From positions 125,906-189,905 of the forward strand of contig JBMNLZ010000002.1 of assembly GCA_050953065.1 (NCBI GenBank): DNA of 64,000 nt, written 5' to 3'. Numbering within the stretch: the first letter of the stretch is position 1; every line of letters begins with the position of its first letter. The notes beneath the pieces were generated by a model. It worked only from the letters and a program-made list of their open reading frames with translations. It was not told where the DNA came from and made no database searches. Shown one piece after another: positions 18,921 through 45,419 of the stretch. Both the position numbers and the translations under genes were made by a program. Source of the DNA: Bacilli bacterium (GTDB taxonomy: Bacteria > Bacillota_I > Bacilli_A > ML615J-28 > CAG-698).

Positions 18921-18936
18921 AAAGTTTTTAAAAGAT

Positions 18937-19012: not shown

Positions 19013-19033
19013 TTTTTTTAAAGATTAGTAACT

Positions 19034-19110: not shown

Positions 19111-19115
19111 TAAGC

Positions 19116-19192: not shown

Positions 19193-19206
19193 GTTTTAAA
19201 ATGTAC

Positions 19207-19297
19207 GGAGGAATACCCAAGTCCGGCTGAAGGGATCGGTCTTGAAAACCGACAGGCGTGCGAGCGCGCGGGGGTTCGAATCCCTCTTCCTCCGCCA
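19207..19297 (+). tRNA. tRNA-Ser (anticodon TGA)
   Basis: GGAGGAATACCCAAGTCCGGCTGAAGG start; anticodon loop CTTGAAA; long variable arm. Confidence 0.85.
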
Positions 19298-19339
19298 TTT
19301 TATTAAAAATAAATTAAGTTAAATATATAAGCATAACAT

Positions 19340-19415
<76 letters not shown>

Positions 19416-19419
19416 AAAT

Positions 19420-19495
19420 GGTCCCATGGTGTAGTGGTTAACATGCCAGTCTGTCACACTGGAGATCGCGGGTTCAAGTCCCGTTGGGACCGCCA
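19420..19495 (+). tRNA. tRNA-Asp (anticodon GTC)
   Basis: Anticodon loop CTGTCAC; acceptor GGTCCCA/TGGGACC. Confidence 0.85.
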
Positions 19496-19501
19496 TTTTT
19501 T

Positions 19502-19577
19502 GGCTCAGTAGCTCAGTTGGTAGAGCGAAGGACTGAAAATCCTTGTGTCGGTGGTTCAATTCCGCCCTGAGCCACCA
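19502..19577 (+). tRNA. tRNA-Phe (anticodon GAA)
   Basis: Anticodon loop CTGAAAA; acceptor GGCTCAG/CTGAGCC; CCA encoded. Confidence 0.85.
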
Positions 19578-20736: not shown

Positions 20737-20746
20737 GAGTTAGTAA

Positions 20747-21568
20747 ATGAACTTAAATAGTTTAGAAAAAGATCTATACATAGATTATCCTGAGTTTAAG
20801 TTATTGCTTGGTGATTCTTTTGAAGTATTAAAAAAATTTGAAGTAAAATCTGTTGATATGGTTTTTGCTGATCCACCATATTTCTTATCTAGTGGCGGGA
20901 TATCTTGTCAAAATGGAAAGCAAGTCTTGGTTAATAAAGGTGATTGGGATATAGCAAAAACAATAGAAGAAAAAATTACATATCACCGTGAATGGATAAG
21001 GCTTTGTAGAAATGTATTAAAAGATGATGGGGCTATCTGGATTTCTGCAACTCTACATAGTGTATATGCAATAGGGGTAGCTTTAGAGATGGAAGGTTTT
21101 TCAATTATAAATAATATTATATGGCAGAAAACCAATCCTGCTCCTAATTTAGGATGTAGATGTTTTACGCACTCAACTGAAACAATTATTTGGGCAAGAA
21201 AACAACTGACTAAAAAAAAGAAAGGTAAACATTGTTTTGATTATCAGTTAATGAAAGAAGTTAATGACGGGAAACAAATGAAAGATGTTTGGGAGTTTAG
21301 TGAAGAAGAACCAATCATTTGGAAAATAAGTACTACGCCAAAAAGAGAGAAAAAAGAAGGAAGGCATCCAACTCAAAAGCCGTTAGAACTTTTAAAAAGA
21401 ATTATTCTTGCTTCTACAAAAGAAAACGATATTGTATTAGACCCTTTTAATGGTAGTGGTACAACTGGAATTGCATGTAAAATCTTGAATAGAAATTATA
21501 TAGGAATTGATAATGACGAAGAGTATTTAAATCTAACAAAGAAAAGATATGAGGTAATAAAAGGATGA
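20747..21568 (+). CDS. dpnA: DNA methyltransferase, N4/N6 family, DpnA-like (second methylase of DpnII-type systems)
   Basis: Motifs FADPPYF, WQKTNPAPN, DGKQMKDVW, HPTQKP, LDPFNGSGTTG resembling remembered DpnA. Confidence 0.75.
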   Translation: MNLNSLEKDLYIDYPEFKLLLGDSFEVLKKFEVKSVDMVFADPPYFLSSGGISCQNGKQVLVNKGDWDIAKTIEEKITYHREWIRLCRNVLKDDGAIWISATLHSVYAIGVALEMEGFSIINNIIWQKTNPAPNLGCRCFTHSTETIIWARKQLTKKKKGKHCFDYQLMKEVNDGKQMKDVWEFSEEEPIIWKISTTPKREKKEGRHPTQKPLELLKRIILASTKENDIVLDPFNGSGTTGIACKILNRNYIGIDNDEEYLNLTKKRYEVIKG

Positions 21569-22410
21569 GAAATTTTGAAGAATGGTTAAGCAAATTTAGA
21601 GAAAGTATAGCTGATTATAAATATTACGTTGATTTTGATAAAGTATATAAAGAAGTTGATGAAATAAAAGTTGAATTAAATATAATGAACAGTTTAATCG
21701 GTTCAAAAAATATTGAAACTGATTTTGAAAAGCTACTTAAAGAATATCCTAAAATTTTAAAATGTATTCCCATTTTGCTTGCAAAAAGAGAACGAGAAAT
21801 TATTGCGATAGATGAAGATGGTTCATATAATTTTAATTTTAATAAAATGAATTATTCAATAGATGAATATAAAATGTTTATGAGAAAAACTGGACTTTTT
21901 GAACTTATAGCAAATAGAATAGTTAATAATTTAGTAGATTACGTATTGGGTGTTGAATCGGGGTTAAGTTCAAACGGTAGAAAAAATCGCGGTGGACATT
22001 TAATGGAAAATATCGTTGAAGGTTATTTGAAAAAAGCTAAGTTAACATACGTTAAAGAAATGCTTTCAAAAGATATTGAAAAAACATGGGGGATAGATTT
22101 GTCTAGTATTTCTAGTGATGGTAAAGCTTTAAAAAGATTTGATTTTGTTGTAAAAACAAATGCTTGTATTTATGCTATCGAATGTAATTTTTATAGTAGT
22201 GGAGGTTCAAAATTAAATGAAACTGCACGTAGTTATAAAATGCTTGCCTTAGAGTCAAAAGATATTAAAGGATTTAAGTTTGTTTGGTTTACTGATGGGC
22301 TTGGTTGGAAAACAGCAAAAAACAATCTAAAAGAAACATTTGATGTGTTAGAAGATTTGTACTCCATTGATGATTTAGAGAAGGACATAATTTTAAAAAA
22401 ATTTAAATAA
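21565..22410 (+). CDS. dpnB: Type II restriction endonuclease, DpnII/MboI family (predicted GATC specificity)
   Basis: Colinear with remembered DpnII (NIMNSLIGSKNI, NGRKNRGG, KRFDFV, SKLNETARSYKM); 4-nt overlap with upstream methylase. Confidence 0.75.
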   Translation: MRNFEEWLSKFRESIADYKYYVDFDKVYKEVDEIKVELNIMNSLIGSKNIETDFEKLLKEYPKILKCIPILLAKREREIIAIDEDGSYNFNFNKMNYSIDEYKMFMRKTGLFELIANRIVNNLVDYVLGVESGLSSNGRKNRGGHLMENIVEGYLKKAKLTYVKEMLSKDIEKTWGIDLSSISSDGKALKRFDFVVKTNACIYAIECNFYSSGGSKLNETARSYKMLALESKDIKGFKFVWFTDGLGWKTAKNNLKETFDVLEDLYSIDDLEKDIILKKFK

Positions 22411-22456
22411 AAGTAAAAACCATTTCTTTAATAATATATATTAAAGAGGTGGTTTT

Positions 22457-23173
22457 TTGTTATATAATGGTGATTGTATAGAAGTAATGAAATCTATTGA
22501 AAGTAAGAGTGTCGATATGATCTTTGCAGATCCGCCCTACTTTCTTTCTAATGATGGTAAAAGTATTTCAAGTGGTAAGATAGTATCTGTTAATAAGGGT
22601 GAATGGGATAAAAGAAAGAATTATGAAAGTGTTGAAGTGTTCACTAAAGAATGGTTAAGTGAATGTTTTAGAATATTAAAAGATAAGTGTAGTATTTGGG
22701 TATCAGGAACACATCACAATATTTTTAATGTTAAAAGAATAATGGATGAAATAGGATTTAAAATAATAAATATAGTGATATGGAAAAAGATAGATCCGCC
22801 GCCTTTAATATATAAAAACAAATTAAGATTTTCGTATGAGTTTATTATTTGGGCTGATAAGGGTAAGGGGCATATTTTTAATTATAATGATATGTATAAA
22901 ATTGCTAATGAGGAGTTAGAAGATGTTTGGATTTTACCGTCTGTTCATATGAACGAAAAGAAATATGGCTATCATCCTACTCAAAAACCAGAATGTCTAT
23001 TAGAAAGAATTATAAAAGCATCTACGAATAAAGGTCAGTTAGTATTAGATCCTTTTATGGGAAGTGGAACAACTTGTGTGGTTGCTAAAAGATTAGGTAG
23101 AAAATTTATAGGAATAGAAAAAGAAAAAATGTTTTATTTAAATTCATGCAAAAGGATTGAAAATCAACTATAA
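22457..23173 (+). CDS. Second N4/N6-family DNA methyltransferase (DpnA paralog); probable TTG start
   Basis: N-terminus LYNGDCIEVMK; FADPPYF, HPTQKP, LDPFMGSGTT motifs; SD AAAGAGGTGG upstream. Confidence 0.7.
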   Translation: MLYNGDCIEVMKSIESKSVDMIFADPPYFLSNDGKSISSGKIVSVNKGEWDKRKNYESVEVFTKEWLSECFRILKDKCSIWVSGTHHNIFNVKRIMDEIGFKIINIVIWKKIDPPPLIYKNKLRFSYEFIIWADKGKGHIFNYNDMYKIANEELEDVWILPSVHMNEKKYGYHPTQKPECLLERIIKASTNKGQLVLDPFMGSGTTCVVAKRLGRKFIGIEKEKMFYLNSCKRIENQL

Positions 23174-23268: not shown

Positions 23269-25668
23269 ATGAGAGTGGAGGTAGATATGAAAAAAACTTT
23301 ATTGATGATATTAGTATTATTAAGTGTAGTACTAGTTGGATGTAAAAAGGTGGAAGCAATTTTTACTATAACTTATAATTTAAATGAAGGAATATTACCT
23401 AGTGGGGCTAAAGAATCTTTTACAGAAAAAGAACTTCCTTTACAGTTAGATATACCAACTAAAGAAGGTTATATTTTTTGGGGATGGTATGAAAAAGTTG
23501 ATTTTAGTGGTGATGCGATTACTGCTTTAACTGAGGCTAAAAACTATATATTATTTGCTTTATGGGAGGAAGAAGAAGTAATTCCTGCAACATATACTAT
23601 AACTTATAATTTAAATGGTGGTAAGAATGTAAAAGCAAATAAGGATAGTTTTAAAGAAAGTGATTTACCACTTGAATTAAGAGGTGCTACTAAACAATAT
23701 TTTACATTTTTAGGATGGTATAAGACTCCTGATTTTAGCGGTGAAGTAGTTACATCTATTACTAAAGAAGGTAATGTTACACTTTATGCTAAGTGGGATA
23801 AAGGTCAAAATATAATTGATTATGATTTAGATGGTGGCGATTGGCCTTATACATATCCTTTTGAAGATAGAAGTGATATGGTAGGTGAGTTTATTACTGA
23901 TATTAATGCAGCGCTTGGTTTATCAACTTCAGCTTCATCTTTCTTTTCAACAGGAACATATGGAAAAGATGTTGCAAGTTTTTTTACAATGGAAGCTTAT
24001 AAAGATAAGTGGGGTTGGTTTAAAACTTATATTATAAATGTTGCAACAAGTCAAGGATATGCTAGTATGTCAGGTCTTAATTCAGGAGATAGTGCAATTT
24101 GGAGAAGTAATATTGATTCGTTTTTAAATAGCACTCAAAGAAGCGAATATCCAGTTAGTGCTAATTTTACAACTGAGGCTGCAGCAAATGGTTTTTGGGA
24201 TTTAATTAAAATAGGTCCTATTATTACTACAACTTATGTTGAAATTACTGAAGATATTACTTTAATTAATCCAGTTAGAAATGGCTATAATTTTTCTTGT
24301 TGGGTTGATGAAGATAACAATCCTATTACAGTAATTAAAAAAGGGACAGAAGGTTACTATAAAGTAAGGGCTGTTTGGGATGCAAGAATTTTCCCAACTG
24401 AAATTGTTATTAATAATCCTCTAACTGCATCTTTAGATAAAGGCGATACTTGGGATTTAGATATTAGCCTATTACCATTTAATGTTGAAGAAACAGACCT
24501 TAATATGGTAAGTAGTAATGAACATATTGTTAGTATTGAGGATGGTATTTTAGAAGCATATGCATATGGGGCAGTTACTATTACAATAGCATCTGTTTAT
24601 AATAGTAGTGCTACTACTACATTTAATGTTACAGTTGCTCCAGCCTTAACTGAAGGAGTTCCTGTAATCTTTAATTCATATGGAACATATCTAAATGCTG
24701 TTATTAAAAAAGGTGAAGCATTTGATTTGTCTGAAGGAATTTATGCATATGAATTAAATGCAGGCGATGTAACTAAAGATATTACAATTAAACTTAATGG
24801 CTATTCTAATCAAGTAGTTGGAAACTATAAAGTCGAATATGAAGTTTTAGTTGGTGGTGCTAAAGCAACACTTGAAAGAAATATAATCGTTAATGAATTT
24901 ATTTGGGTCGGACATCGTGGCTGTAATGATGAATGTGTAAGTAATACAATTGAGGCTTTTGAAAAAGGCATTGCAAGAGGCTATAAAGCTTTAGAATGTG
25001 ATATTAAAGTAACTAAAGATAATCAGTTTGTAATCTTCCATAATGGTTATTTAAATGATGCAACAGGAGAAAAAGTATTAACTGAACCATATCAAGCAAC
25101 AACACCAGAATCTAAAACACTAGCAGAACTACAAGCTATGACAGTTAGTCAAACAAGAACTACTCCATCAGGAACATATACTGGTCAAATTGCAAGTTTA
25201 GGAGAGTTTTTAGATTTATGTAAAACAAATGATATCATTGCTGTTATTGAAATCAAATGGACAACAGGGTTAAATACTAGTGATACTAGTAATGTTGAAA
25301 CATTAGTTGAGTTTGTTAAGAGTAAGGGATGGTATGAAAAAACTGTCTTTATGACTTCAATGAGAGCTGTATTAGATGCTATTAGAATAAAATACAGTGA
25401 TGCTACACTCCAATGGTTATGTGGTGCTCAGGCAACCTATGATTCATATAAAGATTGGGCTATTACAAATAGAATTTCTCTTGATATTGCATATGGACTT
25501 TTAACTGAAGATATAGTTACTGAATTCCATAGTAATGGTTTATTAGTAAATTCATATACTCTAAACACTACAAATATTGCTACTACTCAAATTAATTATG
25601 GAGTTGATATGATCACGACTGATTATTTATATCATAATGGTGGTGTAGTTGCTAAAAAATTCTCTTAA
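23269..25668 (+). CDS. Surface lipoprotein with Listeria-Bacteroides-type repeats and a C-terminal glycerophosphodiester phosphodiesterase (GDPD) domain
   Basis: Lipobox LVGC; repeats (TYNLNGG...GWY...LYAKW); GDPD-like HRGCNDECVSNTIEAFE...ECDIKVTKDNQFVIFHN. Confidence 0.65.
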   Translation: MRVEVDMKKTLLMILVLLSVVLVGCKKVEAIFTITYNLNEGILPSGAKESFTEKELPLQLDIPTKEGYIFWGWYEKVDFSGDAITALTEAKNYILFALWEEEEVIPATYTITYNLNGGKNVKANKDSFKESDLPLELRGATKQYFTFLGWYKTPDFSGEVVTSITKEGNVTLYAKWDKGQNIIDYDLDGGDWPYTYPFEDRSDMVGEFITDINAALGLSTSASSFFSTGTYGKDVASFFTMEAYKDKWGWFKTYIINVATSQGYASMSGLNSGDSAIWRSNIDSFLNSTQRSEYPVSANFTTEAAANGFWDLIKIGPIITTTYVEITEDITLINPVRNGYNFSCWVDEDNNPITVIKKGTEGYYKVRAVWDARIFPTEIVINNPLTASLDKGDTWDLDISLLPFNVEETDLNMVSSNEHIVSIEDGILEAYAYGAVTITIASVYNSSATTTFNVTVAPALTEGVPVIFNSYGTYLNAVIKKGEAFDLSEGIYAYELNAGDVTKDITIKLNGYSNQVVGNYKVEYEVLVGGAKATLERNIIVNEFIWVGHRGCNDECVSNTIEAFEKGIARGYKALECDIKVTKDNQFVIFHNGYLNDATGEKVLTEPYQATTPESKTLAELQAMTVSQTRTTPSGTYTGQIASLGEFLDLCKTNDIIAVIEIKWTTGLNTSDTSNVETLVEFVKSKGWYEKTVFMTSMRAVLDAIRIKYSDATLQWLCGAQATYDSYKDWAITNRISLDIAYGLLTEDIVTEFHSNGLLVNSYTLNTTNIATTQINYGVDMITTDYLYHNGGVVAKKFS

Positions 25669-27920: not shown

Positions 27921-30128
27921 ATGAAGAAATGCTTATTTTTATTTAGTATATGTTTATTTGTTTTAAGTGGATGTTTGTATAAAGTAGAACAACCTCCTAA
28001 AGTAGATATAGTTATTTCTTTTACTAATGAAGGAGATTCATTAGATAAAGTAACTGGAGATTTAATTTTACCAAGTGAATATAAAGAAGAAAGTATTACT
28101 TGGCAATCAAGTAATGAAAGTATTTTATCTAATGATGGAATTCTTTTAGTAGATAAAACAGAAGAAGATATTCCTATAATGATGACTGCAACTCTTTCAA
28201 GTGGTGAGAAGATAAAATTTTTATTAACAATTAAAGCTAACGTTAATGATGAAGAAGATACTGATGTTTTAGCAGTTGAAGTGAAAGCATTTTTAAATGT
28301 GCTTAATAGTATTACTGAAGTTGATTTAGGATCAAGAAACCAAATTGAACTGGCTAGAACATTATTTGATAGATTAGATAGTACTAAAAAAAGGCAAGTT
28401 TCAGGGAAGGATTATTTAAGATTAGTTACGATTGAAAGCACATATAATAGTCTTTTAGTAAATCAAGCAGCAGTAGAAGTTTGCAATATGATTTCTAGTA
28501 TTATAGATGGTTCCCTAACAAATGAACAAGCAATCTTAAATGCTAGATCTAGTTATAATAATTTAAACGATGATTTAAAAAAAGAAGTAAACAATCATGA
28601 TAGATTGCTTGCTTTAGAAGTTGAATTACAATCAAATAAAGATATTGCTTTTGTTGAAGAAAAGATACGTGAAATAGGGCCTGTTGATATGAACAGCGAA
28701 ATAAAAATCAACATTGCTTTAGCTTTTTATAATCATTTAAGTGAAACAGAAAAAGCTAAAGTTTCAAACAAAGATGTTTTGTCTAACGCAGTTAGTGCAT
28801 ATCAAAATTTGATTACGGAATTTAGAGTTGTTTTTTTAGATAGTGATGAGACTGTTTTAAAAATTGAGTCAGTTAAAACAAATCAAAGTGCAACACCTCC
28901 TGTTGTTGATAAAATAGGCTATACATTTATTGCATGGTCAAGTAATGAATATCAAAACGTTACAAAAGATGTAACAGTTAAAGCAAGTTATTCTCTTACA
29001 ACTTATGATATTGTTTATAATTTAAATGGTGGAGTATTAAGTAATTCAGTTAATAGTTATACTGTTTTAGATGAAGTAAATTTAAAAACTCCGACTAAAA
29101 CTAATCATATATTTTTAGGTTGGTATACAGAAAGTAGTTTTACTCATAAAGTAACATCTATTTCAGTTAACTCAATTGGAAATAAAACATTTTATGCTAA
29201 ATGGGTTTCTTTAACAGAAGAGTTTAATATTACATATAATTTAAATGGTGGTTATTGGGGATTTTTAAGTAAGGCTGAACTGACTAGTAGTTTTTTTAAT
29301 GATTTAAAAACATATTTAGGAGCAAGTGAAACATATAATACTTTTGTTCATGGAGTAGGTAAAACAAGTGGCTTTGCAGGGCTTTGGTATACAGATGCTA
29401 GATATAAGGATAAAATATATAAAGTAAATTCTAAACTACCAAATAGTGATCCATACTTTATTAATCATCCAACATATAATGCTAAGTGGCTGGCTTTCTT
29501 TAACTTAATTGATGAAATGGTAAAACAAGTAAATTCTACTCAAAGTTTTTGGGGAGAAGTATATGTTGGAAGACTTAGACTTAAAAACTATTTTGCTGGA
29601 GAGACATTTATTGCATCTCAGTTAGCAAGAATGCCTAATTATAATGGAACAATAGTTAATAAGATTAAGTATAACGATAATTTAACACTAAGAAGACCGT
29701 GTGGAGTTAATAAGGAATTTTTGGGTTGGAGTTTAACTAATACCTCTTCAACAAATTACCTTACTAATCTAACTAATATTTCAAGTAATGTTACACTATA
29801 TGCAATATGGAGAAATATGCAAGCAGTTGAAGTGTCTTTAGGTATTTTTGAAATAACAGCATATTGTCCTTGTAGTATTTGTTGTGGAGAATATTCTGAT
29901 GGTATTACATATTCTGGAACTGTTACTACAGCTGGAAGAACTATTGCAGTTGATCCTAGTGTGATTGCCCTTGGAACTAGTGTTATTATTAATAATCATA
30001 CTTATGTTGCAGAAGATATTGGTAGCGCAATAAAGGGAAAACGAATTGATATTTATTTTAATACTCATCAAGAAGCATTAAATTTTGGCAGAAGACAATT
30101 AGAAGTTAAAGTAATTCAATATCAATAA
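27921..30128 (+). CDS. Surface lipoprotein with Listeria-Bacteroides-type repeats and a C-terminal 3D (MltA/YuiC-like) domain
   Basis: Lipobox LSGC; YNLNGG...GWY...YAKW repeats; C-terminal 3D-like AYCPCSICCGEYSDGITYSGT...DIGSAIKGKRIDIYF. Confidence 0.6.
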   Translation: MKKCLFLFSICLFVLSGCLYKVEQPPKVDIVISFTNEGDSLDKVTGDLILPSEYKEESITWQSSNESILSNDGILLVDKTEEDIPIMMTATLSSGEKIKFLLTIKANVNDEEDTDVLAVEVKAFLNVLNSITEVDLGSRNQIELARTLFDRLDSTKKRQVSGKDYLRLVTIESTYNSLLVNQAAVEVCNMISSIIDGSLTNEQAILNARSSYNNLNDDLKKEVNNHDRLLALEVELQSNKDIAFVEEKIREIGPVDMNSEIKINIALAFYNHLSETEKAKVSNKDVLSNAVSAYQNLITEFRVVFLDSDETVLKIESVKTNQSATPPVVDKIGYTFIAWSSNEYQNVTKDVTVKASYSLTTYDIVYNLNGGVLSNSVNSYTVLDEVNLKTPTKTNHIFLGWYTESSFTHKVTSISVNSIGNKTFYAKWVSLTEEFNITYNLNGGYWGFLSKAELTSSFFNDLKTYLGASETYNTFVHGVGKTSGFAGLWYTDARYKDKIYKVNSKLPNSDPYFINHPTYNAKWLAFFNLIDEMVKQVNSTQSFWGEVYVGRLRLKNYFAGETFIASQLARMPNYNGTIVNKIKYNDNLTLRRPCGVNKEFLGWSLTNTSSTNYLTNLTNISSNVTLYAIWRNMQAVEVSLGIFEITAYCPCSICCGEYSDGITYSGTVTTAGRTIAVDPSVIALGTSVIINNHTYVAEDIGSAIKGKRIDIYFNTHQEALNFGRRQLEVKVIQYQ

Positions 30129-30227: not shown

Positions 30228-30256
30228 TTAACAAAGAAAGGCTTATGTGTTATAAT
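30228..30256 (+). promoter_or_regulatory. Putative promoter of the hydrogenase operon
   Basis: TTAACA, 17-nt spacer, TATAAT (with TGT just upstream). Confidence 0.45.
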
Positions 30257-30348: not shown

Positions 30349-30846
30349 ATGGCAGTTAAAGTCGAATTGACTGAAGCTAAAATTAATGAGTTAAAGTCAA
30401 AAATTGCTGCACACAAGAAAAAACCAGGGCCATTAATGCCTACATTGCATGATGCTCAAAAGATTTTTGGTTGTGTACCTTTAGCAGTGCAAAAAATTAT
30501 TTCAGAAGAATTAGGAGAAAGTGTTGCTAAGATTAATGGTGTTGTTACTTTCTATTCAAATTTTTCAATTGAACCAAAAGGGAAATATGTAATTTCTGTT
30601 TGTTTAGGAACAGCATGCTACGTAAGAAGCGCGCAACAAATCCTTGATGTATTTACAAAAGAATTAAATATTGCTCCAGGTGAAACAACTGAAGATGGTA
30701 AATTTACAATAGAAGCTACAAGATGTATAGGTGCTTGTGGACTAGCTCCTGTTTTTACTATTAATGGTAAAGTTTATGGTTCAGCTACACCTGATATTGC
30801 TAGAAAAGCTTTAAAAGAATGTAAAGAATGTGAAGAAAAGGAGTAG
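30349..30846 (+). CDS. hndA: [FeFe]-hydrogenase NuoE-like subunit (thioredoxin-like [2Fe-2S])
   Basis: NuoE/HndA-like Cys pattern (CLGTAC...CIGACGLAP); first gene of a four-gene hydrogenase operon. Confidence 0.8.
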   Translation: MAVKVELTEAKINELKSKIAAHKKKPGPLMPTLHDAQKIFGCVPLAVQKIISEELGESVAKINGVVTFYSNFSIEPKGKYVISVCLGTACYVRSAQQILDVFTKELNIAPGETTEDGKFTIEATRCIGACGLAPVFTINGKVYGSATPDIARKALKECKECEEKE

Positions 30847-30854: not shown

Positions 30855-31214
30855 ATGAAACTTGCAGATTTAAAAAAGATTAAAGAAGAAGGTAGTAAAA
30901 AACTTTTCTTAAAAGAAGATAAAAATTATAGAATCGTTGTTGGACTAGCAACTTGCGGGATTTCTGCTGGCGCTAATGTTGTTTATGATGAATTAAAAAA
31001 GATAATTAAAAAACAAAATCTTAACGTTGATTTAGTTTCAGTTGGTTGTATGGGTCAATGTGCATTAGAACCAATTGTAGAAGTATATGATAAAAAAGGT
31101 ACAAGAACTACATATGGTAAAGTTAAAGCACAAGATGCTATAAAAATAATTGAAAGTCATATTTTGGCAAACACAGTAGTTGAAGAATTATTGTTGTCAA
31201 AATTATTGAAATAG
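30855..31214 (+). CDS. hndB: Small thioredoxin-like [2Fe-2S] ferredoxin subunit (HndB-like)
   Basis: 119 aa; Cys motifs ATCGISAG and GCMGQCA; lies between the NuoE-like and NuoF-like genes. Confidence 0.65.
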   Translation: MKLADLKKIKEEGSKKLFLKEDKNYRIVVGLATCGISAGANVVYDELKKIIKKQNLNVDLVSVGCMGQCALEPIVEVYDKKGTRTTYGKVKAQDAIKIIESHILANTVVEELLLSKLLK

Positions 31215-31226: not shown

Positions 31227-32693
31227 ATGGTACAAGGAAAACAAGTAAGAATTGCTTTAAGAAATTGTGGTATTATTAATCCTATTTCTTTAGAAGAATA
31301 TGTGGCTTGTGATGGATTCTTTGCTTTAGAAAAAGTGTTGCATCATATGACGCCAGAAGAAGTATGTAAAGTAATTAAGGATTCTGGTTTAAGAGGACGT
31401 GGAGGCGGAGGGTTTCCAACTGGACTTAAATGGGAATTTGAAGCTAAAAATTCTGCCAAACAAAAATATATAATTTGTAATGCTGATGAGGGCGACCCAG
31501 GTGCATTTATGGATAGAGCTGTTTTAGAAGGCGATCCATTCTCAGTAATTGAAGCGTTAATTATTGGTGGGTATGCAACGGGCTCTACTCAAGGTTATGT
31601 TTATATTAGAGCAGAATATCCTTTAGCAGTTGAACGTCTTAATACGGCTATTAAAATTTGTTATAAGAATAACTTGTTAGGTAAAAATATTTTAGAATCA
31701 AACTTTTCATTTAATTTAGAAGCTCGTCTTGGAGCAGGAGCGTTTGTATGTGGTGAGGAGACTGCTTTAATGGCTTCTATTGAAGGTGAAAGAGGAATGG
31801 CTAGAACTAAACCACCATTTCCTGCTGAAAAGGGCTTATGGGGAATGCCAACAAGCATTAATAATGTTGAAACATTTGCAAACATTGCACCAATTATTTT
31901 AAAAGGTGCTGAATGGTTTAAGCAATATGGGACTGAAAAATCTAAAGGTACTAAAGTATTTGCTTTAGGTGGAAAAATTAATAATACTGGTCTTTTAGAA
32001 ATTCCAATGGGAACTACTTTAAGAGAAGTTATATATGACATTGGTGGTGGGATACCTGGTGGGAAAGCTTTTAAAGCTGTTCAAACAGGTGGACCTAGTG
32101 GAGGATGTTTAACTGCAAAACATCTTGACACTGGAATTGATTATGATAACTTAGTTGCACTTGGCTCAATGATGGGGTCTGGTGGAATGATTGTTATGGA
32201 TGAAGATAATTGTATGGTTGATGTTGCAAGATTTTTCTTAGATTTTACAGTTGATGAGTCATGTGGTAAATGTACTCCTTGTAGAGAAGGTACTAAGAGA
32301 ATGCTTGAAATTTTAGAAAAGATTATTGCTGGAAAAGGTGAAATGAGTGATTTAGACGAATTAGAAAGCCTAGCTCATTCAATTAAAGACTCAGCACTTT
32401 GTGGTTTAGGTCAAACTGCTCCAAACCCAGTATTATCAACTCTAAATAATTTTAGAGATGAATATATTGCTCATATCGTTGAGAAGAGATGTCCTGCTGG
32501 AGTATGTAAGGATTTAATTAAATATCATATATTAGCGGATAAATGTATTGGTTGTACAAGATGTGCTAAAGTTTGTCCAACTGGTGCTATTAAAGGCGAA
32601 TTAAAACAAGCACATGTAATTGATGTTAATAAATGCATTAAATGTGGAGCATGTAAACAAGCGTGTCCTGTTCATGCGATTGTTACTAAGTAG
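31227..32693 (+). CDS. hndC: NuoF-like NAD(P)H-binding flavoprotein subunit with FMN and Fe-S sites
   Basis: [16 protein letters not shown] motif; C-terminal 2x[4Fe-4S] ([24 protein letters not shown]). Confidence 0.85.
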
Positions 32694-32710: not shown

Positions 32711-34501
32711 ATGGAAAAATTAGTCAAATTAACTATTGATGGAAGAAGTGTCGAAGTACCTAGTAATTCTACTGTAATGGAAGCAGCGGATAAACTTGGG
32801 ATTAGTATCCCACGTATCTGTTTCTTAAAAGGAATTAATGAAACATCTGCTTGTAGATTATGTGTAGTAGAAGTTGAAGGTATAAAAGCATTAAAAAGCT
32901 CTTGTACATTACAAGTAGCTGAAGGAATGAAAGTTAAAACTAATACTGAAAGAATTAGAAATGCAGTTAAGTTTAACTTAAAATTATTAGCAGCTAGTCA
33001 TAAATTTGAATGTTGGGTTTGCCCTAGAGAACATAATTGTGAACTATTAAGATTGTTAAGAATTTATGGTATTCCTAATGAAATGGGAGAAGATAATACT
33101 TTCTCTAAAAAGCATATTATTTCAAATATTAATGAAGCAATTGCAATTGATAGTTCTAAGTGCTTACTTTGTGGTAGATGTATTGCTACTTGTGATAAGT
33201 TAGCTGGAACGGGAATTCTAGATTTTAACTATCGTGGCTTTGAAGCTTTTGTTGGACCAGCCTTAAACCATCCTATGGGAGATACTGGATGTATTCTTTG
33301 TGGGAAATGTATTCAAGCATGTCCAGTTGGAGCTATTAAAGAAAAAGATGATGTTGATAGAGTAATGGAAGTATTAAAAGATCCAGAAGTTTATACAATT
33401 GCTCAAATCGCTCCAGCCGTAAGAGCAGGAGTTGGTGAGGAGTTTGGTTATCCAATGGGCACTAATGTTGAAGGTAAAATCTATCATGCCTTACATAAAT
33501 TAGGTTTTGATGATATTACAGATACTAACTTTGCGGCTGACTTAACTATTCTAGAAGAAGGAACAGAATTTATTGGTAGAGTTAAAGACTATTTAGCTGG
33601 TAAAAAAGCTGTTCTACCTATGTTTACTTCATGTTCGCCTGGTTGGATTAATTATCTTGAAACTTATTATCCTGAATTTATTCCAAACCTTTCAACATGT
33701 AAATCGCCTCAACAAATGCAAGGAGCGATAATTAAGAATTACTATGCTAAGAAGATTGGAGTTCCAAAAGAAAAGATTAGAGTAGTTTCAATCATGCCAT
33801 GTATTGCTAAGAAGAAAGAAGCGCTTCGTCCTGAAATGGAAGTAGATGGCGTTAGAGATGTTGATTATGTATTAACATCTAGAGAATTTGCTCGCTTAGT
33901 AAAACGTAATCTAATTGACTTTAATGCTTTAACTGATTTTGTTCCACAAAGTCCACTTGCTAAGTATACTGGTGCTGCAGTAATCTTTGGGGCAACTGGT
34001 GGAGTAATGGAAGCGGCTTTAAGAACTGTTAAAGAAGTTTTAGAAGAAAAAGATATGGGTAAAGTTGATATCACTGCAGTTCGTGGAATGAAGGATATCA
34101 AAGAAGCTACAGTTAAGATTGAATTAAAAGGAGCTAAAGAACCTCTAGAAGTACTTGTTGCTGTAGTTCATGGTGCTGCTAATGTTCCTGAAATGATGGA
34201 AAGAATCAAGAAGGGTAAAAAGCAATATGCCTTTATTGAATTTATGGCATGTACTGGTGGATGTATCAATGGTGGTGGTCAACCAGTAGTTTCAGCTGAA
34301 GTTCAAGATAAAGTAGATGTTAGAGCAGTTCGTGCTAAAGCATTATACAATATGGATAAACGCGCTCAAATTAGAAAGTCTCATGAAAACGAAGCAGTTA
34401 GCACATTGTATAAAGAGTTCTTAGGTGAACCTGGAAGTAATGTATCTCATAAATTACTTCATACACATTATAAAAAACAAGATAAGTTTACTAAAATTTA
34501 A
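32711..34501 (+). CDS. hndD: [FeFe]-hydrogenase catalytic subunit
   Basis: N-terminal [2Fe-2S] and Fe-S domains; H-cluster motifs TSCSPGW (variant), MPCIAKKKE, EFMACTGGCINGGGQP. Confidence 0.85.
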   Translation: MEKLVKLTIDGRSVEVPSNSTVMEAADKLGISIPRICFLKGINETSACRLCVVEVEGIKALKSSCTLQVAEGMKVKTNTERIRNAVKFNLKLLAASHKFECWVCPREHNCELLRLLRIYGIPNEMGEDNTFSKKHIISNINEAIAIDSSKCLLCGRCIATCDKLAGTGILDFNYRGFEAFVGPALNHPMGDTGCILCGKCIQACPVGAIKEKDDVDRVMEVLKDPEVYTIAQIAPAVRAGVGEEFGYPMGTNVEGKIYHALHKLGFDDITDTNFAADLTILEEGTEFIGRVKDYLAGKKAVLPMFTSCSPGWINYLETYYPEFIPNLSTCKSPQQMQGAIIKNYYAKKIGVPKEKIRVVSIMPCIAKKKEALRPEMEVDGVRDVDYVLTSREFARLVKRNLIDFNALTDFVPQSPLAKYTGAAVIFGATGGVMEAALRTVKEVLEEKDMGKVDITAVRGMKDIKEATVKIELKGAKEPLEVLVAVVHGAANVPEMMERIKKGKKQYAFIEFMACTGGCINGGGQPVVSAEVQDKVDVRAVRAKALYNMDKRAQIRKSHENEAVSTLYKEFLGEPGSNVSHKLLHTHYKKQDKFTKI

Positions 34502-34510
34502 ATGAGTTTT

Positions 34511-34543
34511 AAGATTCTAAGGAAAACCTTAGAATCTTTTTTA
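34511..34543 (+). terminator. Rho-independent terminator after the hydrogenase operon
   Basis: Stem AAGATTCTAAGG / CCTTAGAATCTT followed by a T-run. Confidence 0.7.
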
Positions 34544-34619
34544 TAAAATGATATCTATTTGCATAAGAAAGTACAAAATATTTGTACTTATAGGAGCAAA
34601 TAATATCTATAAATAATTA

Positions 34620-34650
34620 AAAGATTCTAAATAAAATTTTAGAATCTTTT
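34620..34650. terminator. Second hairpin (AAGATTCTAAA / TTTAGAATCTT), likely terminator for the convergent minus-strand regulator
   Basis: Inverted repeat read directly; shares the AAGATTCTAA arm with the hairpin at 34511. Confidence 0.45.
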
Positions 34651-34653
34651 AAT

Positions 34654-35283
34654 TTAATCTAATAATTTGATATAGTCTTTTGAATAATCAATTAAGCCTA
34701 AATCTTTTAAAAGGATTAACTCTCTTGATAAAGATGGCCTTGGAATATTTAAAAAAAGTGCTAGTTGTTCTTTTGATTTAATTTTGATTGTTTTTGATTT
34801 GGTCCTTTTACTAGTTTCAGATAAAAAGAATAAGATTTTATCTTTAATACTTTTTTGAGAAAGTATTTTAATTTTTTGTTGGAAAGCAATACTTTTATTG
34901 GACATAATAGATAAATAATTATTTAAGAATGTTTTATCGTTTTGCAAGATGTTTAATAGTTTATCTTTAGTAATCAAAGCAAGTTCAGTTGATTTAAAAG
35001 CACTAACATCTCCTAAAAAGAAAGGATTAGAATGGAAGAGTAAAAACTCTCCAAATAAATCATTTTCGTTTATTGTAATAATATTATATTCTTCTTCAAA
35101 GAATGTATAAGTATTAATTAAAACAGAACCTTTTAAAACTAAAGATAAATATTTACATTCATCTCCTTCATTAAAGATCATATCGTTTTTATTAAAAGTT
35201 TTGATTATAAAGAGATTACTATAGTCTTTTATAACATTTTCAAATAGTGGATGATTTTTCATTGTTTTTCCTTTCTGTAACAA
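34654..35283 (-). CDS. Crp/Fnr-family transcriptional regulator
   Basis: N-terminal cNMP-binding-like region; C-terminal HTH (RPSLSRELILLKDLGLI). Confidence 0.7.
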   Translation of the reverse strand: MLQKGKTMKNHPLFENVIKDYSNLFIIKTFNKNDMIFNEGDECKYLSLVLKGSVLINTYTFFEEEYNIITINENDLFGEFLLFHSNPFFLGDVSAFKSTELALITKDKLLNILQNDKTFLNNYLSIMSNKSIAFQQKIKILSQKSIKDKILFFLSETSKRTKSKTIKIKSKEQLALFLNIPRPSLSRELILLKDLGLIDYSKDYIKLLD

Positions 35284-39639: not shown

Positions 39640-41478
39640 TTATTCTATAACATAAATTATCTTACTCCAAACAACACTAAATGTTGTAAGACTATATTCG
39701 ATATAAACATCACTTACATTTGGATCATTACAAATAATGAAAGTTCCATTATCAGTAATTTTGTATCCTCTAACAACTAGTAAGTGTCCTGGTACATCAT
39801 AATTAGCTTCTACCATATTACCTCTTACAGTGGTTGAGATTGGACCAACTGTTTCTAAGTGGTGGAAAAGTTCTTCAAATGAATAAAGTCTTTTAACATA
39901 ACTTATCTCTCCAAAGGAAGACATTGTTACACAGTTATATACCCAGTTACCATAAATTTGATGTCCGTAGTCTCTTGAAAGCCCTGCAATGTATCTGTGT
40001 TCATATGTGTCCATATGAGCAAAACTATAACCTTTATATTTTAGAAGCATTGTAGCGCTTGTTGGGCTACAAATACTATTACCAATTGTTGGAACAATTT
40101 TTTGATTTAGTTTTGGAACCTCATAATCTTTAAAGCCGCTGATAATACTTTCGTCTACTTCAAAGGTATAATCTGGAATTTTTAAAGCAGCAGTAACAAA
40201 ACTTGCAACAGGGAAAGGATCAGATAAAAAGTTTCTTTTTAAAATCAGTTTATATTGGAAAGCATTAGCTGTTTTATCGTTTTGAACTTTTATTTCATCA
40301 ACTGCCATTTTAGCGATTGGTTTGTCTTGGTCAGTATAAGCATTTTGAAGATGTAATCCCCATGCTCCGTATGTTAAGTATTCACTCCAAACATCATCAA
40401 CTCTAACTCTAATTTGAAGTTCACAAGTTCCTTTGTTTTCATTCTCATCAGATGTAAGTGCTCCCCAAGAACCAATTAATTCTGAAAAGTTTAGAGTTTG
40501 GATTACTTTAGAAGTATAAGTCCCAGTTAGTGCATTGTCATCTAAAATTAATTTTTCATTGAATAATTTAACATTGTCAAATGTTCCATTGAAGTTTTCA
40601 GCAAGTCCTTTATATAAATGTCCGTTGAATTGTTCGATACCATCGGGTAGTTTTGAAATGTTTAAATTAAAAGTATGTGTCATTGTTAAATCTCCTTGAG
40701 TTTTTAGAGTTACTGTTAGATTAACTATCTTTTCTTCATCTTGCATAAAGACATAGCCTTTATTTGATAAAATCTCTTCATTGCTTGACTGCCAAGTAGC
40801 AGTTACATTATATAAAAAATTAGTTGGAAGTAAAACTGAAGAATTTAGTGTCTCAGGAAAAGAGATACTGTTTAAGGCAATTTCTAATTTTTTATCATCA
40901 TCTGGTGGTAAGACATCGATTGTAAAAGATTTAGTAATAGTAGCATTTGAAAATCTTAAAGTAGCCATTAAAGTAACTGTAGTTGGTTTTAAAACAACGC
41001 CAACAATTCCATCTTTGTTTAAAACGCCACTTGCAGTAGAAGTCCAAGTGATTCTAGCAAAGCCAATTGTTGTTGGCAGGTTTAAATTTTCGCTAGTTTC
41101 TGTTGGTAGAGCAAGTTCAAGTGCTAGTGTTTCTAAGTCGTTGTGATAATCAGGAGTATATAAGAAAACATCAAATGTTTTAGTAACGGTCTTACTCTTA
41201 TAAGATAGTGTTAAAGTGAGTGCAACTAATTGATCTTCTTCAAATGGATAAATTACTCCAGTATTATCAATTACAGTGGGGATGTTTGATTCCCAAGTAG
41301 CAGTAACGCCTTCTTCAAAAACTGTAGGTAGGGTAATGTTTTCTTTAATATCAACAATTTCTTCAGGGATTGAAACTGAGTTTATTATTTTGGTTAAATC
41401 TATTTTTTTCTTACACCCTGTTAAAAATAATAAACTAAAACCAAACAAAATTAAAAATATTTTTTTCAAAATAATCAC
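39640..41478 (-). CDS. Surface lipoprotein with Ig-like repeats and a C-terminal papain-like cysteine peptidase (C39-like) domain
   Basis: Lipobox LTGC; repeated modules (TATWQSSNEEILSNKGYV); C-terminal NSICSPTSATMLL with later His. Confidence 0.6.
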   Translation of the reverse strand: MIILKKIFLILFGFSLLFLTGCKKKIDLTKIINSVSIPEEIVDIKENITLPTVFEEGVTATWESNIPTVIDNTGVIYPFEEDQLVALTLTLSYKSKTVTKTFDVFLYTPDYHNDLETLALELALPTETSENLNLPTTIGFARITWTSTASGVLNKDGIVGVVLKPTTVTLMATLRFSNATITKSFTIDVLPPDDDKKLEIALNSISFPETLNSSVLLPTNFLYNVTATWQSSNEEILSNKGYVFMQDEEKIVNLTVTLKTQGDLTMTHTFNLNISKLPDGIEQFNGHLYKGLAENFNGTFDNVKLFNEKLILDDNALTGTYTSKVIQTLNFSELIGSWGALTSDENENKGTCELQIRVRVDDVWSEYLTYGAWGLHLQNAYTDQDKPIAKMAVDEIKVQNDKTANAFQYKLILKRNFLSDPFPVASFVTAALKIPDYTFEVDESIISGFKDYEVPKLNQKIVPTIGNSICSPTSATMLLKYKGYSFAHMDTYEHRYIAGLSRDYGHQIYGNWVYNCVTMSSFGEISYVKRLYSFEELFHHLETVGPISTTVRGNMVEANYDVPGHLLVVRGYKITDNGTFIICNDPNVSDVYIEYSLTTFSVVWSKIIYVIE

Positions 41479-41646: not shown

Positions 41647-42744
41647 ATGAGCGCTTTCATTTTAGAAAAAATAGATAAGAATTTTAAAGATAGTAAGTTT
41701 ATTGATAGTAATCTTGATTGGTATGATGTCTTAAAAATGAAAGATTACGTAAAGGGACTATATTGGTTTAAAACTAATAATAGTTTTTCAAGGCTAGATG
41801 ATAATTTAGAAGTAAGAGATAATCTAAAGGTTTTATCTTTAATGCCAAGTGGAGGATATCTTGAGTTTGAAAGTGATACTGATGAGATATCTTTAGATGT
41901 TGAATTAGAGGATAGTTACTTCATGCCACATATGACTGCAATAGGTCAAGCGGGCTTTGATTTATATGCAAAGTTTGGTGAAAAGTTTATTTATTTAGCT
42001 AGTACTAAAACAAAAGAGATAAAATATCGATATAATCTTTATAAAAGTGATAAAAAAGAGTTAAGAACCTATAGAATTTATCTACCAATGTACATAAAAA
42101 TTTTAAGTTTAAGTTTAGGTTTAGGTAAGGATGGTATAATAAGAGGTACATCGGAGAATAAAGGCGCATATATTGTGTGTTATGGAACTTCTATTACTCA
42201 AGGTGGATGTGCAACAAGACCTGGTATGAATTATACAAGCATCTTAGAAAGGCATATTGATTATAGAGTTTTAAATTTTGGCTTTTCTGGGAATGCTCAT
42301 TTAGATAGTGTAATAGCTAAAGAAATTGTAAAAATTAATCCTGAAATAGTTATAATAGAGGCTATTGCAAATTGTTTAGGTAAAGATTTCTTTGAAGAAA
42401 ATTTGAAAGAATTTATAAAAATTGTTTCAAGAAAAGCCAGTGTTATTGTTACTAGTTATTTTCCAAGTTCTAGTGCTTTAATTGATATTAATAAAGATAA
42501 GTTAATTAAAGAAAGCACTAAAATTGTTAAAAAAGTTATCAAAGAAATTAATAATGAGAATGTGTATTTTTTAGATGGTTTTGAAATATTAAAAGAACTA
42601 GACTATGAAGAAACAGTAGATGGCATACATCTAACTGATTTAGGCTTTTATTTCTTAGCTATGAAGTTAAGAGACAAAATAAAAAAAATAAAACGTGAGG
42701 TGGAAAGAAAAAAATGTTTAAGCAAAAAAGATTTTTCGTATTAG
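41647..42744 (+). CDS. SGNH/GDSL-type hydrolase (esterase/acylhydrolase) with an N-terminal extra domain
   Basis: Block I GTSITQGG (Ser nucleophile) and later DGIH; track start 41629 is a TTG inside a TATAAT box, so ATG 41647 is preferred. Confidence 0.6.
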   Translation: MSAFILEKIDKNFKDSKFIDSNLDWYDVLKMKDYVKGLYWFKTNNSFSRLDDNLEVRDNLKVLSLMPSGGYLEFESDTDEISLDVELEDSYFMPHMTAIGQAGFDLYAKFGEKFIYLASTKTKEIKYRYNLYKSDKKELRTYRIYLPMYIKILSLSLGLGKDGIIRGTSENKGAYIVCYGTSITQGGCATRPGMNYTSILERHIDYRVLNFGFSGNAHLDSVIAKEIVKINPEIVIIEAIANCLGKDFFEENLKEFIKIVSRKASVIVTSYFPSSSALIDINKDKLIKESTKIVKKVIKEINNENVYFLDGFEILKELDYEETVDGIHLTDLGFYFLAMKLRDKIKKIKREVERKKCLSKKDFSY

Positions 42745-45419
42745 TATTCATGTTATTGGTGGGCTTACTATTAGTGGCTTGTGATAAGCCAGTTGCTGTT
42801 GGCCCTGGAATCAGCTTTGTTGATGGTGAAATTACTATGGAAGTTGGAGCAGAAATTAATCTAAGCTCTAGTTTAACTCTAACTGGTATTGATAATATTA
42901 GTTTGATTACTTTTACAACAACTAAACCTGGTTTAATTCAAATTAGCGGTACAACAATTAAAGCTCTTGCTGCAGGTAATGGAACAGTTACAGCTGCTCT
43001 AGCAAGTGATAGTAGTATATCAGATACTGTAATTGTTAGAATAACTGCAGGTTCAAACACTTTAAGTGCTTTAGAAGTTAGTGCAGTTGATACGTTCTTA
43101 GGAATAGGTGGAAGTGCAATGTTATCAGTTACTCCAACTCCTGCTACTGCATCAAATGCAGTTACATGGAGTAGTAGTGATAATACAGTTGCTACAGTTT
43201 CTGCAACAGGATTAGTTAATGCTGTTGGATTAGGTGCAGCTACAATTACTGCAACTTCAAGTGTTTCTAGTTCAATCACTGGTTCAATTAATATTTATGT
43301 AAATGAAGCAAGTGAACCTGGTGAAATTACAATTAATGGTAATTCATCAGTTGCTGCTGGTAGTTCTACTCAATTAATGGCAGCATTTGAAAATACTTAT
43401 TATTCTAGTGTTACTTGGACTTCAGCAAACAATGCAATTGCAACTGTTAGTGCTAGTGGCGTTGTTACTGGTGTAACTCAAGGTAGTGTAATTATTACAG
43501 CAATGGCAGGGCCTGCTAATGAATATACAAAAACTATTACAATTACAGTAACTGCTGGAACTGGTGCTCCTACAATTAATATTACTGGAAATAGTAGTGT
43601 TCAAGTAGGTGCGACTGCTCAATTAACTGCTCAAGTAAATGGTGGAGCAGGAAATGTTCTTTGGTCATCTAGCGATAATGAAAAAGCTACAGTTTCAACA
43701 ACTGGGCTTGTAACTGGTATTGAAGCTGGTCCAGTAGTAATTACTGCGACTTTAGCAACAAATCCAAGTGTTACAGCAACATTTAATATAACTGTAATTG
43801 CTGGTGGGTCTGCGACTATTTCTATTTCAGGATCTACTTCAGTTAATAAAAATTCAACAATCTCATTGACTGCTAGTGCATCTGTAAATGGTACTCCTGT
43901 AAGTGGTACTATTCAATGGAGTTCAAGTGATGTTAATATAGCAATCGTTAATAATGGTCAAGTTTATGGTGTTGAAGCAGGTACTGCAATTATTACAGCT
44001 GCTTTAGCAGATAATACAAGTGTTTACTCAACTATTAGTATTCAAGTTATTGATCCAAACTCTGGTGGTGGTGGTGGAGATGAACCTACTTCACTTGCTA
44101 TTACTGGTGTAAGTGGTGTTAACGTTGGTTCAACTCTTCAATTAGGTTATACTATTACTCCGACTCCAAGTGGAGCGGTTACTATTGAATGGGTTTCAAG
44201 CAACTCATTAATCGCAAGCGTTTCTGCTACTGGTCTTGTTACTGGTGTATCAGTAGGTACTGCTGTTATTTATGCAACTATTGAAGGAACTTCAGTTACT
44301 GGTACTGCAAATATTAGTGTAACTAATCCTCCTGCTGATCCTACTATTCAAGCATCAGCATCAAATTCAACAATCGTAGTTGGTGGATATACTCAAATTA
44401 GTGCGACAACTGATCCAGCTGGTGCGGATGTTCAATATACATCTGATAATACAAGTATAGCTACAGTTGATCAAACTGGTAAAGTTACAGGTGTTGCTGC
44501 TGGTAACGCAGTAATCACTGTTTCATTAGTAAGTAACTCTGCAATTAAAGCTACTGTTGCAATTAAGGTTGACCCTGCTCCTGCAACTTCAATTACACTT
44601 ACTTTAAGATTAGAAGATATGAGCAATAATCCTGTTGCTTATGCATTAATCGGTGGAGCTGATACTCAAGTAACAATTACTAATATCGCTCAAACAGGTT
44701 CTTCTACAAGATATGACTTTGACTGGTCAAGTAGTGCAACAAATATAGCAACAATTTCTAGTGCTGGTACAATTACTCCAGTTGCTGCTGGTAAGACAAC
44801 AATTACAGCTGAATTGAAGTCAAATCCTCAAACAAAAGGATCTGTAGAAATTCAAATTTTAGCAACACCGCCTGCAACATTAACTTTAACTGCAACTAAG
44901 ACAAGCTTTGCAGTTGGTGAAACTTCTCAAGTTAGTGTAACTGGTGGAACTGCAGCGACATTCAGTCTTCCAGAAGGCGATGAATGGAAAGCATCAATTG
45001 ATGCAAGTACTGGACTTGTTACAGCTAAAGCTCCTTCAATAGTTGTAGTTACTGCAACTTCTACAGCTGATCCATTAGTTAAGGGTACTATTACTTTAAC
45101 AATCACAGCTGCTGCTGGTGCCTTAAATGTTAAGGTATATCAAAGCAGTGCTCAAGGTGGATCTACTGGTACAAGTTTAACTGAAATTTCTAAGGCAGCT
45201 GCTGATGGCGGTGGAGCTGGATATTATCAAGTTTATGTTTATGACTCAAGTGGTGTTGCAATCAGCCGTACAGCATGTACATTCACTACTACTGATGGTA
45301 ATGTTTGTACAGTAAGTATTTATGGTTCAATTACTGCAGTAGCAATTGGTGGTCCAGTAACAATCAAAGCTGTTTATGGTAGCCAAGAAGGAACTGTAAC
45401 TATTTCAGTTGTAGCGTAA
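42714..45419 (+). CDS. Large surface lipoprotein with multiple Ig-like (Big_2) repeats
   Basis: Lipobox LVAC; about 10 tandem 80-90 aa Ser/Thr/Ala/Gly-rich modules (e.g. WSSSDNxxATVSxTGLVTGVxxG). Confidence 0.7.
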   Translation: MFKQKRFFVLVFMLLVGLLLVACDKPVAVGPGISFVDGEITMEVGAEINLSSSLTLTGIDNISLITFTTTKPGLIQISGTTIKALAAGNGTVTAALASDSSISDTVIVRITAGSNTLSALEVSAVDTFLGIGGSAMLSVTPTPATASNAVTWSSSDNTVATVSATGLVNAVGLGAATITATSSVSSSITGSINIYVNEASEPGEITINGNSSVAAGSSTQLMAAFENTYYSSVTWTSANNAIATVSASGVVTGVTQGSVIITAMAGPANEYTKTITITVTAGTGAPTINITGNSSVQVGATAQLTAQVNGGAGNVLWSSSDNEKATVSTTGLVTGIEAGPVVITATLATNPSVTATFNITVIAGGSATISISGSTSVNKNSTISLTASASVNGTPVSGTIQWSSSDVNIAIVNNGQVYGVEAGTAIITAALADNTSVYSTISIQVIDPNSGGGGGDEPTSLAITGVSGVNVGSTLQLGYTITPTPSGAVTIEWVSSNSLIASVSATGLVTGVSVGTAVIYATIEGTSVTGTANISVTNPPADPTIQASASNSTIVVGGYTQISATTDPAGADVQYTSDNTSIATVDQTGKVTGVAAGNAVITVSLVSNSAIKATVAIKVDPAPATSITLTLRLEDMSNNPVAYALIGGADTQVTITNIAQTGSSTRYDFDWSSSATNIATISSAGTITPVAAGKTTITAELKSNPQTKGSVEIQILATPPATLTLTATKTSFAVGETSQVSVTGGTAATFSLPEGDEWKASIDASTGLVTAKAPSIVVVTATSTADPLVKGTITLTITAAAGALNVKVYQSSAQGGSTGTSLTEISKAAADGGGAGYYQVYVYDSSGVAISRTACTFTTTDGNVCTVSIYGSITAVAIGGPVTIKAVYGSQEGTVTISVVA

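Follow-up and report, generated by a model that had tools for sequence, protein, structure and literature searches.

Natural and engineered serine variants of motif 1

HydABC complexes of Acetobacterium woodii and Thermoanaerobacter kivui are both active bidirectional hydrogenases (Katsyv et al. 2023, PMC10021017). They differ in a ligand of the H-cluster cubane, which is Cys299 in T. kivui and Ser301 instead in A. woodii (PMC10021017). Ser301 was modelled as cubane ligand in HydA1 of the A. woodii HydABC(D) complex (PDB 7Q4V, 7Q4W, 8A5E; Katsyv et al. 2023, PMC10021017). The serine leaves the vibrational (FTIR) signature of the H-cluster canonical and unaffected, and the bifurcating enzyme is active, with a catalytic activity similar to that of the all-Cys T. 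kivui enzyme (PMC10021017). The cryo-EM maps of the A. woodii enzyme are of moderate resolution, with 3.49 Å for the aerobic map of T. kivui (PMC10021017), so that the Fe-O(Ser) ligation in A. woodii is modelled rather than proven. In the [FeFe]-hydrogenase CpI of Clostridium pasteurianum (4XDC and others), the proton-relay cysteine adjoining the azadithiolate bridge is Cys299 (PMC11376134).

The same exchange was introduced into the algal enzyme with a different outcome. Chlamydomonas HydA1 C115S bound little [4Fe-4S], showed no [2Fe] insertion and was inactive, and its authors were surprised by this inactive and cluster-poor variant (Kertess et al. 2017, PMC5855289). In that study the expressed protein is numbered, and C115, the neighbour of the proton-relay Cys114, is the motif 1 ligand. 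The active variant C170S concerns the motif 2 cysteine and is not comparable to the serine described below (Ser309; PMC5855289). The Cys-to-Ser exchange at the motif 1 ligand is thus inactive in the engineered HydA1, whereas the natural TSCSP enzyme of A. woodii is active, and the tolerance of serine therefore depends on the context. According to Kertess et al. 2017 (PMC5855289), who cite Winkler et al. 2013, about 20% of putative hydrogenase sequences have serine at this site. TSCSPGW was also noted already in two trimeric confurcating-type hydrogenases of Melainabacteria ACD20 (Di Rienzi et al. 2013, PMC3787301).

Motif 1 of the HydA studied here

A hydrogenase with this variant is encoded within the analysed stretch of 64,000 nucleotides (the window). 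The gene and its three H-cluster motifs are located as follows:

32711..34501, forward strand: hydA, 596-aa M3-type [FeFe]-hydrogenase catalytic subunit
33620..33646, forward strand: L1/P1 H-cluster motif MFTSCSPGW, in frame within the hydA ORF
33794..33820, forward strand: L2 motif MPCIAKKKE, residues 362-370; Cys364 equals CpI Cys355, Met362 equals Met353 and Lys367 equals Lys358
34238..34285, forward strand: L3 motif EFMACTGGCINGGGQP, residues 510-525; Cys514 equals CpI Cys499, Cys518 equals Cys503 and Met512 equals Met497

The initial annotation had reported TSCSPGW instead of TSCCPxW at 33620-33646. This was confirmed by the DNA (ATG TTT ACT TCA TGT TCG CCT GGT TGG), which translates in frame to M-F-T-S-C-S-P-G-W. 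The codon TGT at 33632-33634 encodes Cys308 at the position of the proton-relay cysteine, and TCG at 33635-33637 encodes Ser309 at the position of the [4Fe-4S]H ligand. Compared with the textbook motif TSCCPxW with both cysteines, HydA keeps the first and has serine for the second.

The equivalence of the two residues was derived from ungapped phmmer alignments. C308/S309 correspond to C299/C300 of CpI (row numbering, alignments to solved structures), to C298/C299 of T. kivui HydA and to C300/S301 of A. woodii HydA1. The flanks of L1 (PMxTS and PGW) are identical, and more than 25 ungapped residues on each side against CpI, T. kivui and A. woodii rule out a register shift or a misalignment of the two positions. 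The pairing proposed from the sequence, with the first cysteine as proton relay and the second position as cluster ligand, was upheld by these alignments and agrees with the assignments in the solved enzymes (PMC10021017, PMC11376134).

Domain architecture and conserved active-site residues

HydA is composed of an N-terminal 2Fe-2S domain, a His-ligated 4Fe-4S site, two [4Fe-4S] clusters and an H-domain with a small-subunit-like C-terminus. Pfam assigned Fe_hyd_lg_C (6.3e-90) and Fe_hyd_SSU (3.6e-24), and the Pfam domains give the M3 architecture of CpI-type enzymes. The protein scored 506 bits with TIGR02512 (cutoff 406) and 783.1 bits with NCBIfam NF040763, ‘NADH-dependent [FeFe] hydrogenase, group A6’ (cutoff 765). 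Its best PDB match is A. woodii HydA1 (7q4v_A, E=1e-177, 49% identity). An AF2 model with a pLDDT of 73, in which the H-domain was predicted well and the ferredoxin domain poorly, superposed best on 7q4w_A, followed by 8a6t_A and CpI, with a TM of 0.84 for all. HydA thus has the domains and the CpI-like fold of a group-A [FeFe]-hydrogenase. No PAS or other sensory domain was found in HydA with Pfam.

Motifs 2 and 3 (MPCIAKKKE and EFMACTGGCINGGGQP) had been described as standard and both are present in this form, matching the patterns MPCxxKxxE and ExMACxxGCxxGGGxP with their three cysteines. The remaining cluster cysteines C364, C514 and C518 are accordingly conserved. Both motif 3 cysteines are kept, while the ACD20 proteins have isoleucine for one of them (PMC3787301). 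The proton pathway of CpI (E279, E282, R286, C299, S319) is complete in HydA with E283, E286, R290, C308 and S328, and the second-sphere residues A234, P235, M362, K367, F426 and M512 are conserved as well.

With serine at the position of CpI C300, an otherwise intact L1 and a score above the NF040763 cutoff, HydA falls by sequence into the Ser-ligated subgroup of the A. woodii HydA1 type. It resembles A. woodii HydA1, its best match in sequence and fold, in the TSCSPGW motif with serine at the [4Fe-4S]H ligand position, the M3 architecture and the L2 and L3 cysteines. The fold, the proton pathway and the second-sphere residues are also shared with T. kivui HydA (8A6T) and CpI, but these two carry TSCCP[S/G]W, with cysteine in place of Ser309 and an all-cysteine H-cluster.

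Operon and partner subunits

hydA closes an operon of four genes in the order hydC - hydD-like - hydB - hydA. Besides hydA it comprises:

30228..30256, forward strand: promoter-like site TTAACA-17-TATAAT with TG extension upstream of hydC, a consensus match only
30349..30846, forward strand: hydC, 165-aa NuoE-like [2Fe-2S] subunit (Pfam 2Fe-2S_thioredx, 1.4e-46; NCBIfam NuoE/HoxE-like)
30855..31214, forward strand: hydD-like gene, stand-alone 119-aa thioredoxin-like [2Fe-2S] protein (Pfam 2Fe-2S_thioredx)
31227..32693, forward strand: hydB, 488-aa NuoF-like FMN/NAD(H) subunit (Pfam Complex1_51K, NADH_4Fe-4S, Fer4)
34511..34538, forward strand: terminator-like hairpin with T-run directly past the hydA stop codon

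The operon is flanked by the strong promoter-like site and by hairpin terminators, as predicted from the sequence. Immediately downstream, the opposite strand carries a gene for a Crp/Fnr-type regulator. Neither HydE, HydF or HydG maturase genes nor a second hydrogenase were found within the 64-kb window.

HydA is encoded together with both partners of a HydABC complex, the NuoE-like HydC and the NuoF-like HydB with its FMN/NAD site and C-terminal 2x[4Fe-4S] domain, as in A. woodii. HydB aligns to residues 114-596 of A. woodii HydB (E=8e-230). The latter has 599 aa and contains the B2 [2Fe-2S] domain in the same polypeptide, whereas HydB of the window begins at the equivalent of residue 114 and lacks this N-terminal thioredoxin-like domain of characterised HydB proteins. 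The 119-aa protein encoded directly upstream of hydB may supply the B2 domain in trans. Its PDB matches are the N-terminal domains of HoxF, NfnB and HydB, and its nearest relatives are likewise encoded by separate ORFs that precede hydB in related loci.

HydB contains GDPGAFMDR and GGPSG, which are identical in A. woodii HydB. GGPSG of the SLBB domain is a marker of bifurcating enzymes (Losey et al. 2020), and the Ala and Met called for by the same criteria are present in the NADH-site motif GxPGxFxDR, onto which we mapped positions 232/234 of Losey et al. by our own inference. As the B2 domain is absent from HydB in cis, the case for bifurcation is weaker than that for hydrogenase activity.

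Distribution of serine at the ligand position

Serine occupies this position across hundreds of homologues. A full HMMER scan covered 1.84 billion 50%-identity representatives, and the best 149 usable matches were scored. Among these best 149 cluster representatives, the position of CpI C300 is Cys in 119, Ser in 28 (19%) and Ala in one, and 23 of them have the Cys-Ser pair. The motif 2 and motif 3 cysteines are kept in the full-length Ser-type representatives. When each GTDB species was represented by one genome, the scan gave at least 600 stretches, of which 80 loci were kept and fetched together with the locus of a sister strain (81 in total). L1 was readable in 79 of the 81 loci with 80 motifs altogether, and 79 of these 80 read TSCSP[G/A]W among the matches listed. 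Of the 81 loci, at least 76 have hydB next to hydA. Among the matches listed, the loci come from Izemoplasmatales, Acholeplasmataceae, Erysipelotrichaceae (Holdemania massiliensis), Faecalicatena contorta, many Clostridia (Lachnospiraceae, Oscillospiraceae, Christensenellaceae), Thermoanaerobacteraceae and deltaproteobacterial MAGs.

Among the matches listed, TCN codes for the serine in 52 motifs of the fetched genome loci and AGY in 27, and the use of both codon families shows long-term selection of serine. TCY-TGY-AGY would be a path of consecutive single steps via cysteine, which would fit with Cys and Ser being interchangeable at this site. Monophyly of the Ser-type sequences was examined on a set of 152 sequences by neighbour joining and Fitch parsimony, and the tree, though crude (BLOSUM distance, deep divergences), required 19 changes at this position. 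A Cys-type sequence was the nearest neighbour of six of the 21 Ser-type representatives. A single origin of a serine clade was rejected; these data show no more than an interspersion of Ser and Cys forms, and the number of switches is not relied upon.

Glycine at x of TSCSPxW was found in 21 of 24 Ser enzymes versus 44 of 113 Cys enzymes at the corresponding position, and in 76 of the 79 motifs of the genome loci among the matches listed. Apart from this glycine, a column-wise search for association with serine gave only weak preferences at nearby positions, and no residue stood out clearly as compensating.

The initial annotation had named a TSCSP variant that is standard for a known active subgroup as an outcome that would refute it. 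TSCSP does prove to be such a variant, with about 20% of putative sequences and the A. woodii enzyme carrying serine here. The replacement of the motif 1 cysteine ligand by serine is widespread in nature and documented; it was already known and is not new. As about a fifth of related hydrogenases share it, including a solved and active enzyme, the motif has to be considered ordinary. TSCCPxW is failed by the proven A. woodii HydA1 and by 19% of the representatives and is therefore too narrow as a defining feature. Strict screening for it, as in some surveys, would wrongly drop about one fifth of genuine HydA, and with them the majority of the HydABC-type enzymes found in gut and sediment Clostridia, Erysipelotrichia and Izemoplasma/Acholeplasma-like Bacilli.

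Proposed role of Ser309

HydA is very probably a functional group-A [FeFe]-hydrogenase, namely the subunit that forms or oxidises H2 in a HydABC-type complex linked to NAD(H) and probably to ferredoxin, in which the side-chain oxygen of Ser309 serves as cubane ligand. The other H-cluster ligands and the proton pathway are intact and the operon is of the HydABC type, which points to an enzyme that is most likely active, NADH/ferredoxin-linked and equipped with a Ser-ligated cubane. Both the Ser-O ligation and full activity would be expected by homology to A. woodii HydA1. The identity to this protein is only 49%, and the host, an uncultured low-GC (32%) Bacilli-type bacterium, is no acetogen, unlike A. 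woodii. Judging from a fermentative Bacilli-type physiology at such a low GC content, the most likely direction is confurcating, i.e. H2 formation from NADH and reduced ferredoxin.

Within the H-cluster, the oxygen of Ser309 would replace a cysteine thiolate as one of the four [4Fe-4S]H ligands. Cys364, Cys514 and Cys518 would be the other three, one of them bridging to the di-iron site. Cys308 would keep its normal role and pass protons to the azadithiolate bridge, and the hydrogen chemistry at the di-iron site as well as the proton delivery by Cys308 would be unchanged.

It is conceivable, though rather doubtful, that the natural TSCSPGW enzymes form a co-adapted class. The Ser-O ligand would then be enabled by adaptations nearby, for instance the near-obligatory glycine, and it would shift the [4Fe-4S]H potential and tune the bias of (con)furcation, here with B2 in trans. 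If true, this would explain why serine recurs in multimeric HydABC-type enzymes while it kills algal HydA1. The effect of serine on the cluster potential, and the question of why it works here and fails in HydA1, concern the whole field and are not specific for this locus.

Ser309 might also be tolerated without being a real ligand, the cubane being held by three cysteines and water or hydroxide, or by Cys308 shifted onto it. Solvent coordination was discussed for Chlamydomonas HydA1 C115A, with Cys114 suggested as alternative ligand (Kertess et al., PMC5855289), the resolution of the A. woodii cryo-EM model is limited, and three TSCSP representatives (P0126, P0148, P0219) have an extra cysteine beside the motif 3 ligand (M-C-C). 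Motif 3 of the window has M-A-C, however, and thus no spare cysteine. A residue that is merely tolerated is also hard to reconcile with the invariance of the serine, with one Ala versus 28 Ser among the best 149 representatives, and with the use of both serine codon families. A shift of Cys308 would cost the proton relay, which conflicts with the activity and the canonical H-cluster states of the A. woodii enzyme. We consider this arrangement quite unlikely.

Ligation by Ser309 was one of two options in the initial annotation and is the one that agrees with the modelled Ser301 of A. woodii; the other, a non-canonical enzyme, possibly of low activity or of a sensory kind, was not supported. A sensory, regulatory or low-activity paralogue like the group C/D HydS would accord with the departure from the canonical L1 motif and with the neighbouring Crp/Fnr-type regulator gene. 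HydS-like proteins would be recognised by loss of the relay cysteine and by a sensory domain, but HydA has no PAS or other such domain, Cys308 and the entire proton pathway are intact, the second-sphere residues are kept, and the gene shares its operon with those of NuoE- and NuoF-like subunits. The nearest solved relative is moreover an active bifurcating enzyme with the identical motif, and a high turnover (hundreds or more µmol H2 per min per mg) has already been demonstrated for A. woodii HydABC. A sensory function is thus highly improbable and was rejected, given the domains present and an intact proton relay.

Authenticity of the serine codon

Two base changes would be needed to convert TCG to a cysteine codon (TGY). 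The sister strain, an independent ENA assembly (L001), differs in 26 of 1791 hydA bases and is identical in the motif DNA, and a relative with 89% identity (L011) has the motif codons TGT TCA. The 120 nearest homologues, drawn from a database of 5.8 billion sequences (63-99% identity), all have the serine, 119 of them in TSCSPGW and the remaining one in SSCSPGW. Since this distinct strain was assembled independently, the close homologues agree, and the hydA ORF is unbroken with its other active-site residues conserved, the probability of a sequencing or assembly error, which the initial annotation had considered, or of a recent inactivating mutation (pseudogenisation) is negligible, and nothing speaks for either except the departure from the textbook motif. 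S309 is also invariant in an alignment of 32 sequences with 63-87% identity, in which the mean column identity is 73%.

HydB and the stand-alone 2Fe-2S protein

Two genes of the hyd operon differ from the HydB organisation known from Acetobacterium woodii:
30855-31214, + strand, stand-alone thioredoxin-like 2Fe-2S protein (119 aa), directly upstream of hydB
31227-32693, + strand, hydB product (488 aa)

The HydB of the window starts at the equivalent of residue 114 of A. woodii HydB, so that the thioredoxin-like [2Fe-2S] domain (B2) at the N-terminus is missing from it. This domain was likened by Katsyv et al. (PMC10021017) to cluster N1a of complex I, which has itself been suggested to make bifurcation possible. 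The short HydB arrangement was also found in two close relatives, the sister strain (L001) and the 89%-identity relative (L011). The 119-aa protein contains only three cysteines (C34, C65 and C69). In four relatives' loci (L002, L003, L006 and L008), a stand-alone ORF of ~127 aa sits before a full-length HydB, and the 119-aa protein is closer to these ORFs than to the HydB N-termini of the same loci.

Motif 3 of Ser-type HydA

In motif 3, M-A-C is replaced by M-C-C in some representatives of the Ser-type (TSCSP) hydrogenases (P0126, P0148 and P0219), which places an additional cysteine beside the ligand corresponding to CpI-C499. This cysteine might stand in for the missing thiolate. Motif 3 of the window HydA does not contain the extra cysteine seen in these three representatives. 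The top match of the representative search, P0121, is a polypeptide of 4122 aa in which HydA-like sequence occurs in seven separate stretches. Several hydrogenases may have been concatenated or mis-assembled into one polypeptide here, and P0121 was left out of the analyses.

Region downstream of hydA

Directly downstream of the operon, a regulator gene lies in convergent orientation:
34654-35283, - strand, Crp/Fnr-family regulator (cNMP-binding domain and HTH_Crp_2)

A Crp/Fnr-family regulator likewise adjoins the hyd operon in L001 (ENA ERZ2647956). The regulator of the window could be a candidate regulator of the operon. The interval between hydA and the regulator (window 34502-34653) was compared with its counterpart in the sister strain:
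L001 4109-5568, 194-aa ORF and gene of an AbiEii-domain protein

Both genes are absent from the window; the two strains thus differ by the insertion or deletion of this gene pair, which is probably a toxin-antitoxin/abortive-infection module.

Other genes of the window

Several large surface proteins were predicted:
5079-7973
23269-25668
27921-30128
39640-41478, - strand
42714-45419

Their repeat domains are of the Big_2, 'atrophied Ig' (aBig_2) and Listeria-Bacteroides types, and enzymatic modules (GDPD, 3D domain and C39-like peptidase) are fused to them. Such proteins are typically found in Bacilli lineages that are wall-less or host-associated.

A DpnII-type restriction-modification cluster is also present:
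19696-23173, HTH-fused D12-class N6-adenine methyltransferase, N6_N4 methylase, DpnII endonuclease and second N6_N4 methylase

A full rRNA operon (16S, 23S, 5S) followed by 11 clustered tRNA genes, three of them tRNA-Met(CAT), occupies positions 13728-19577.
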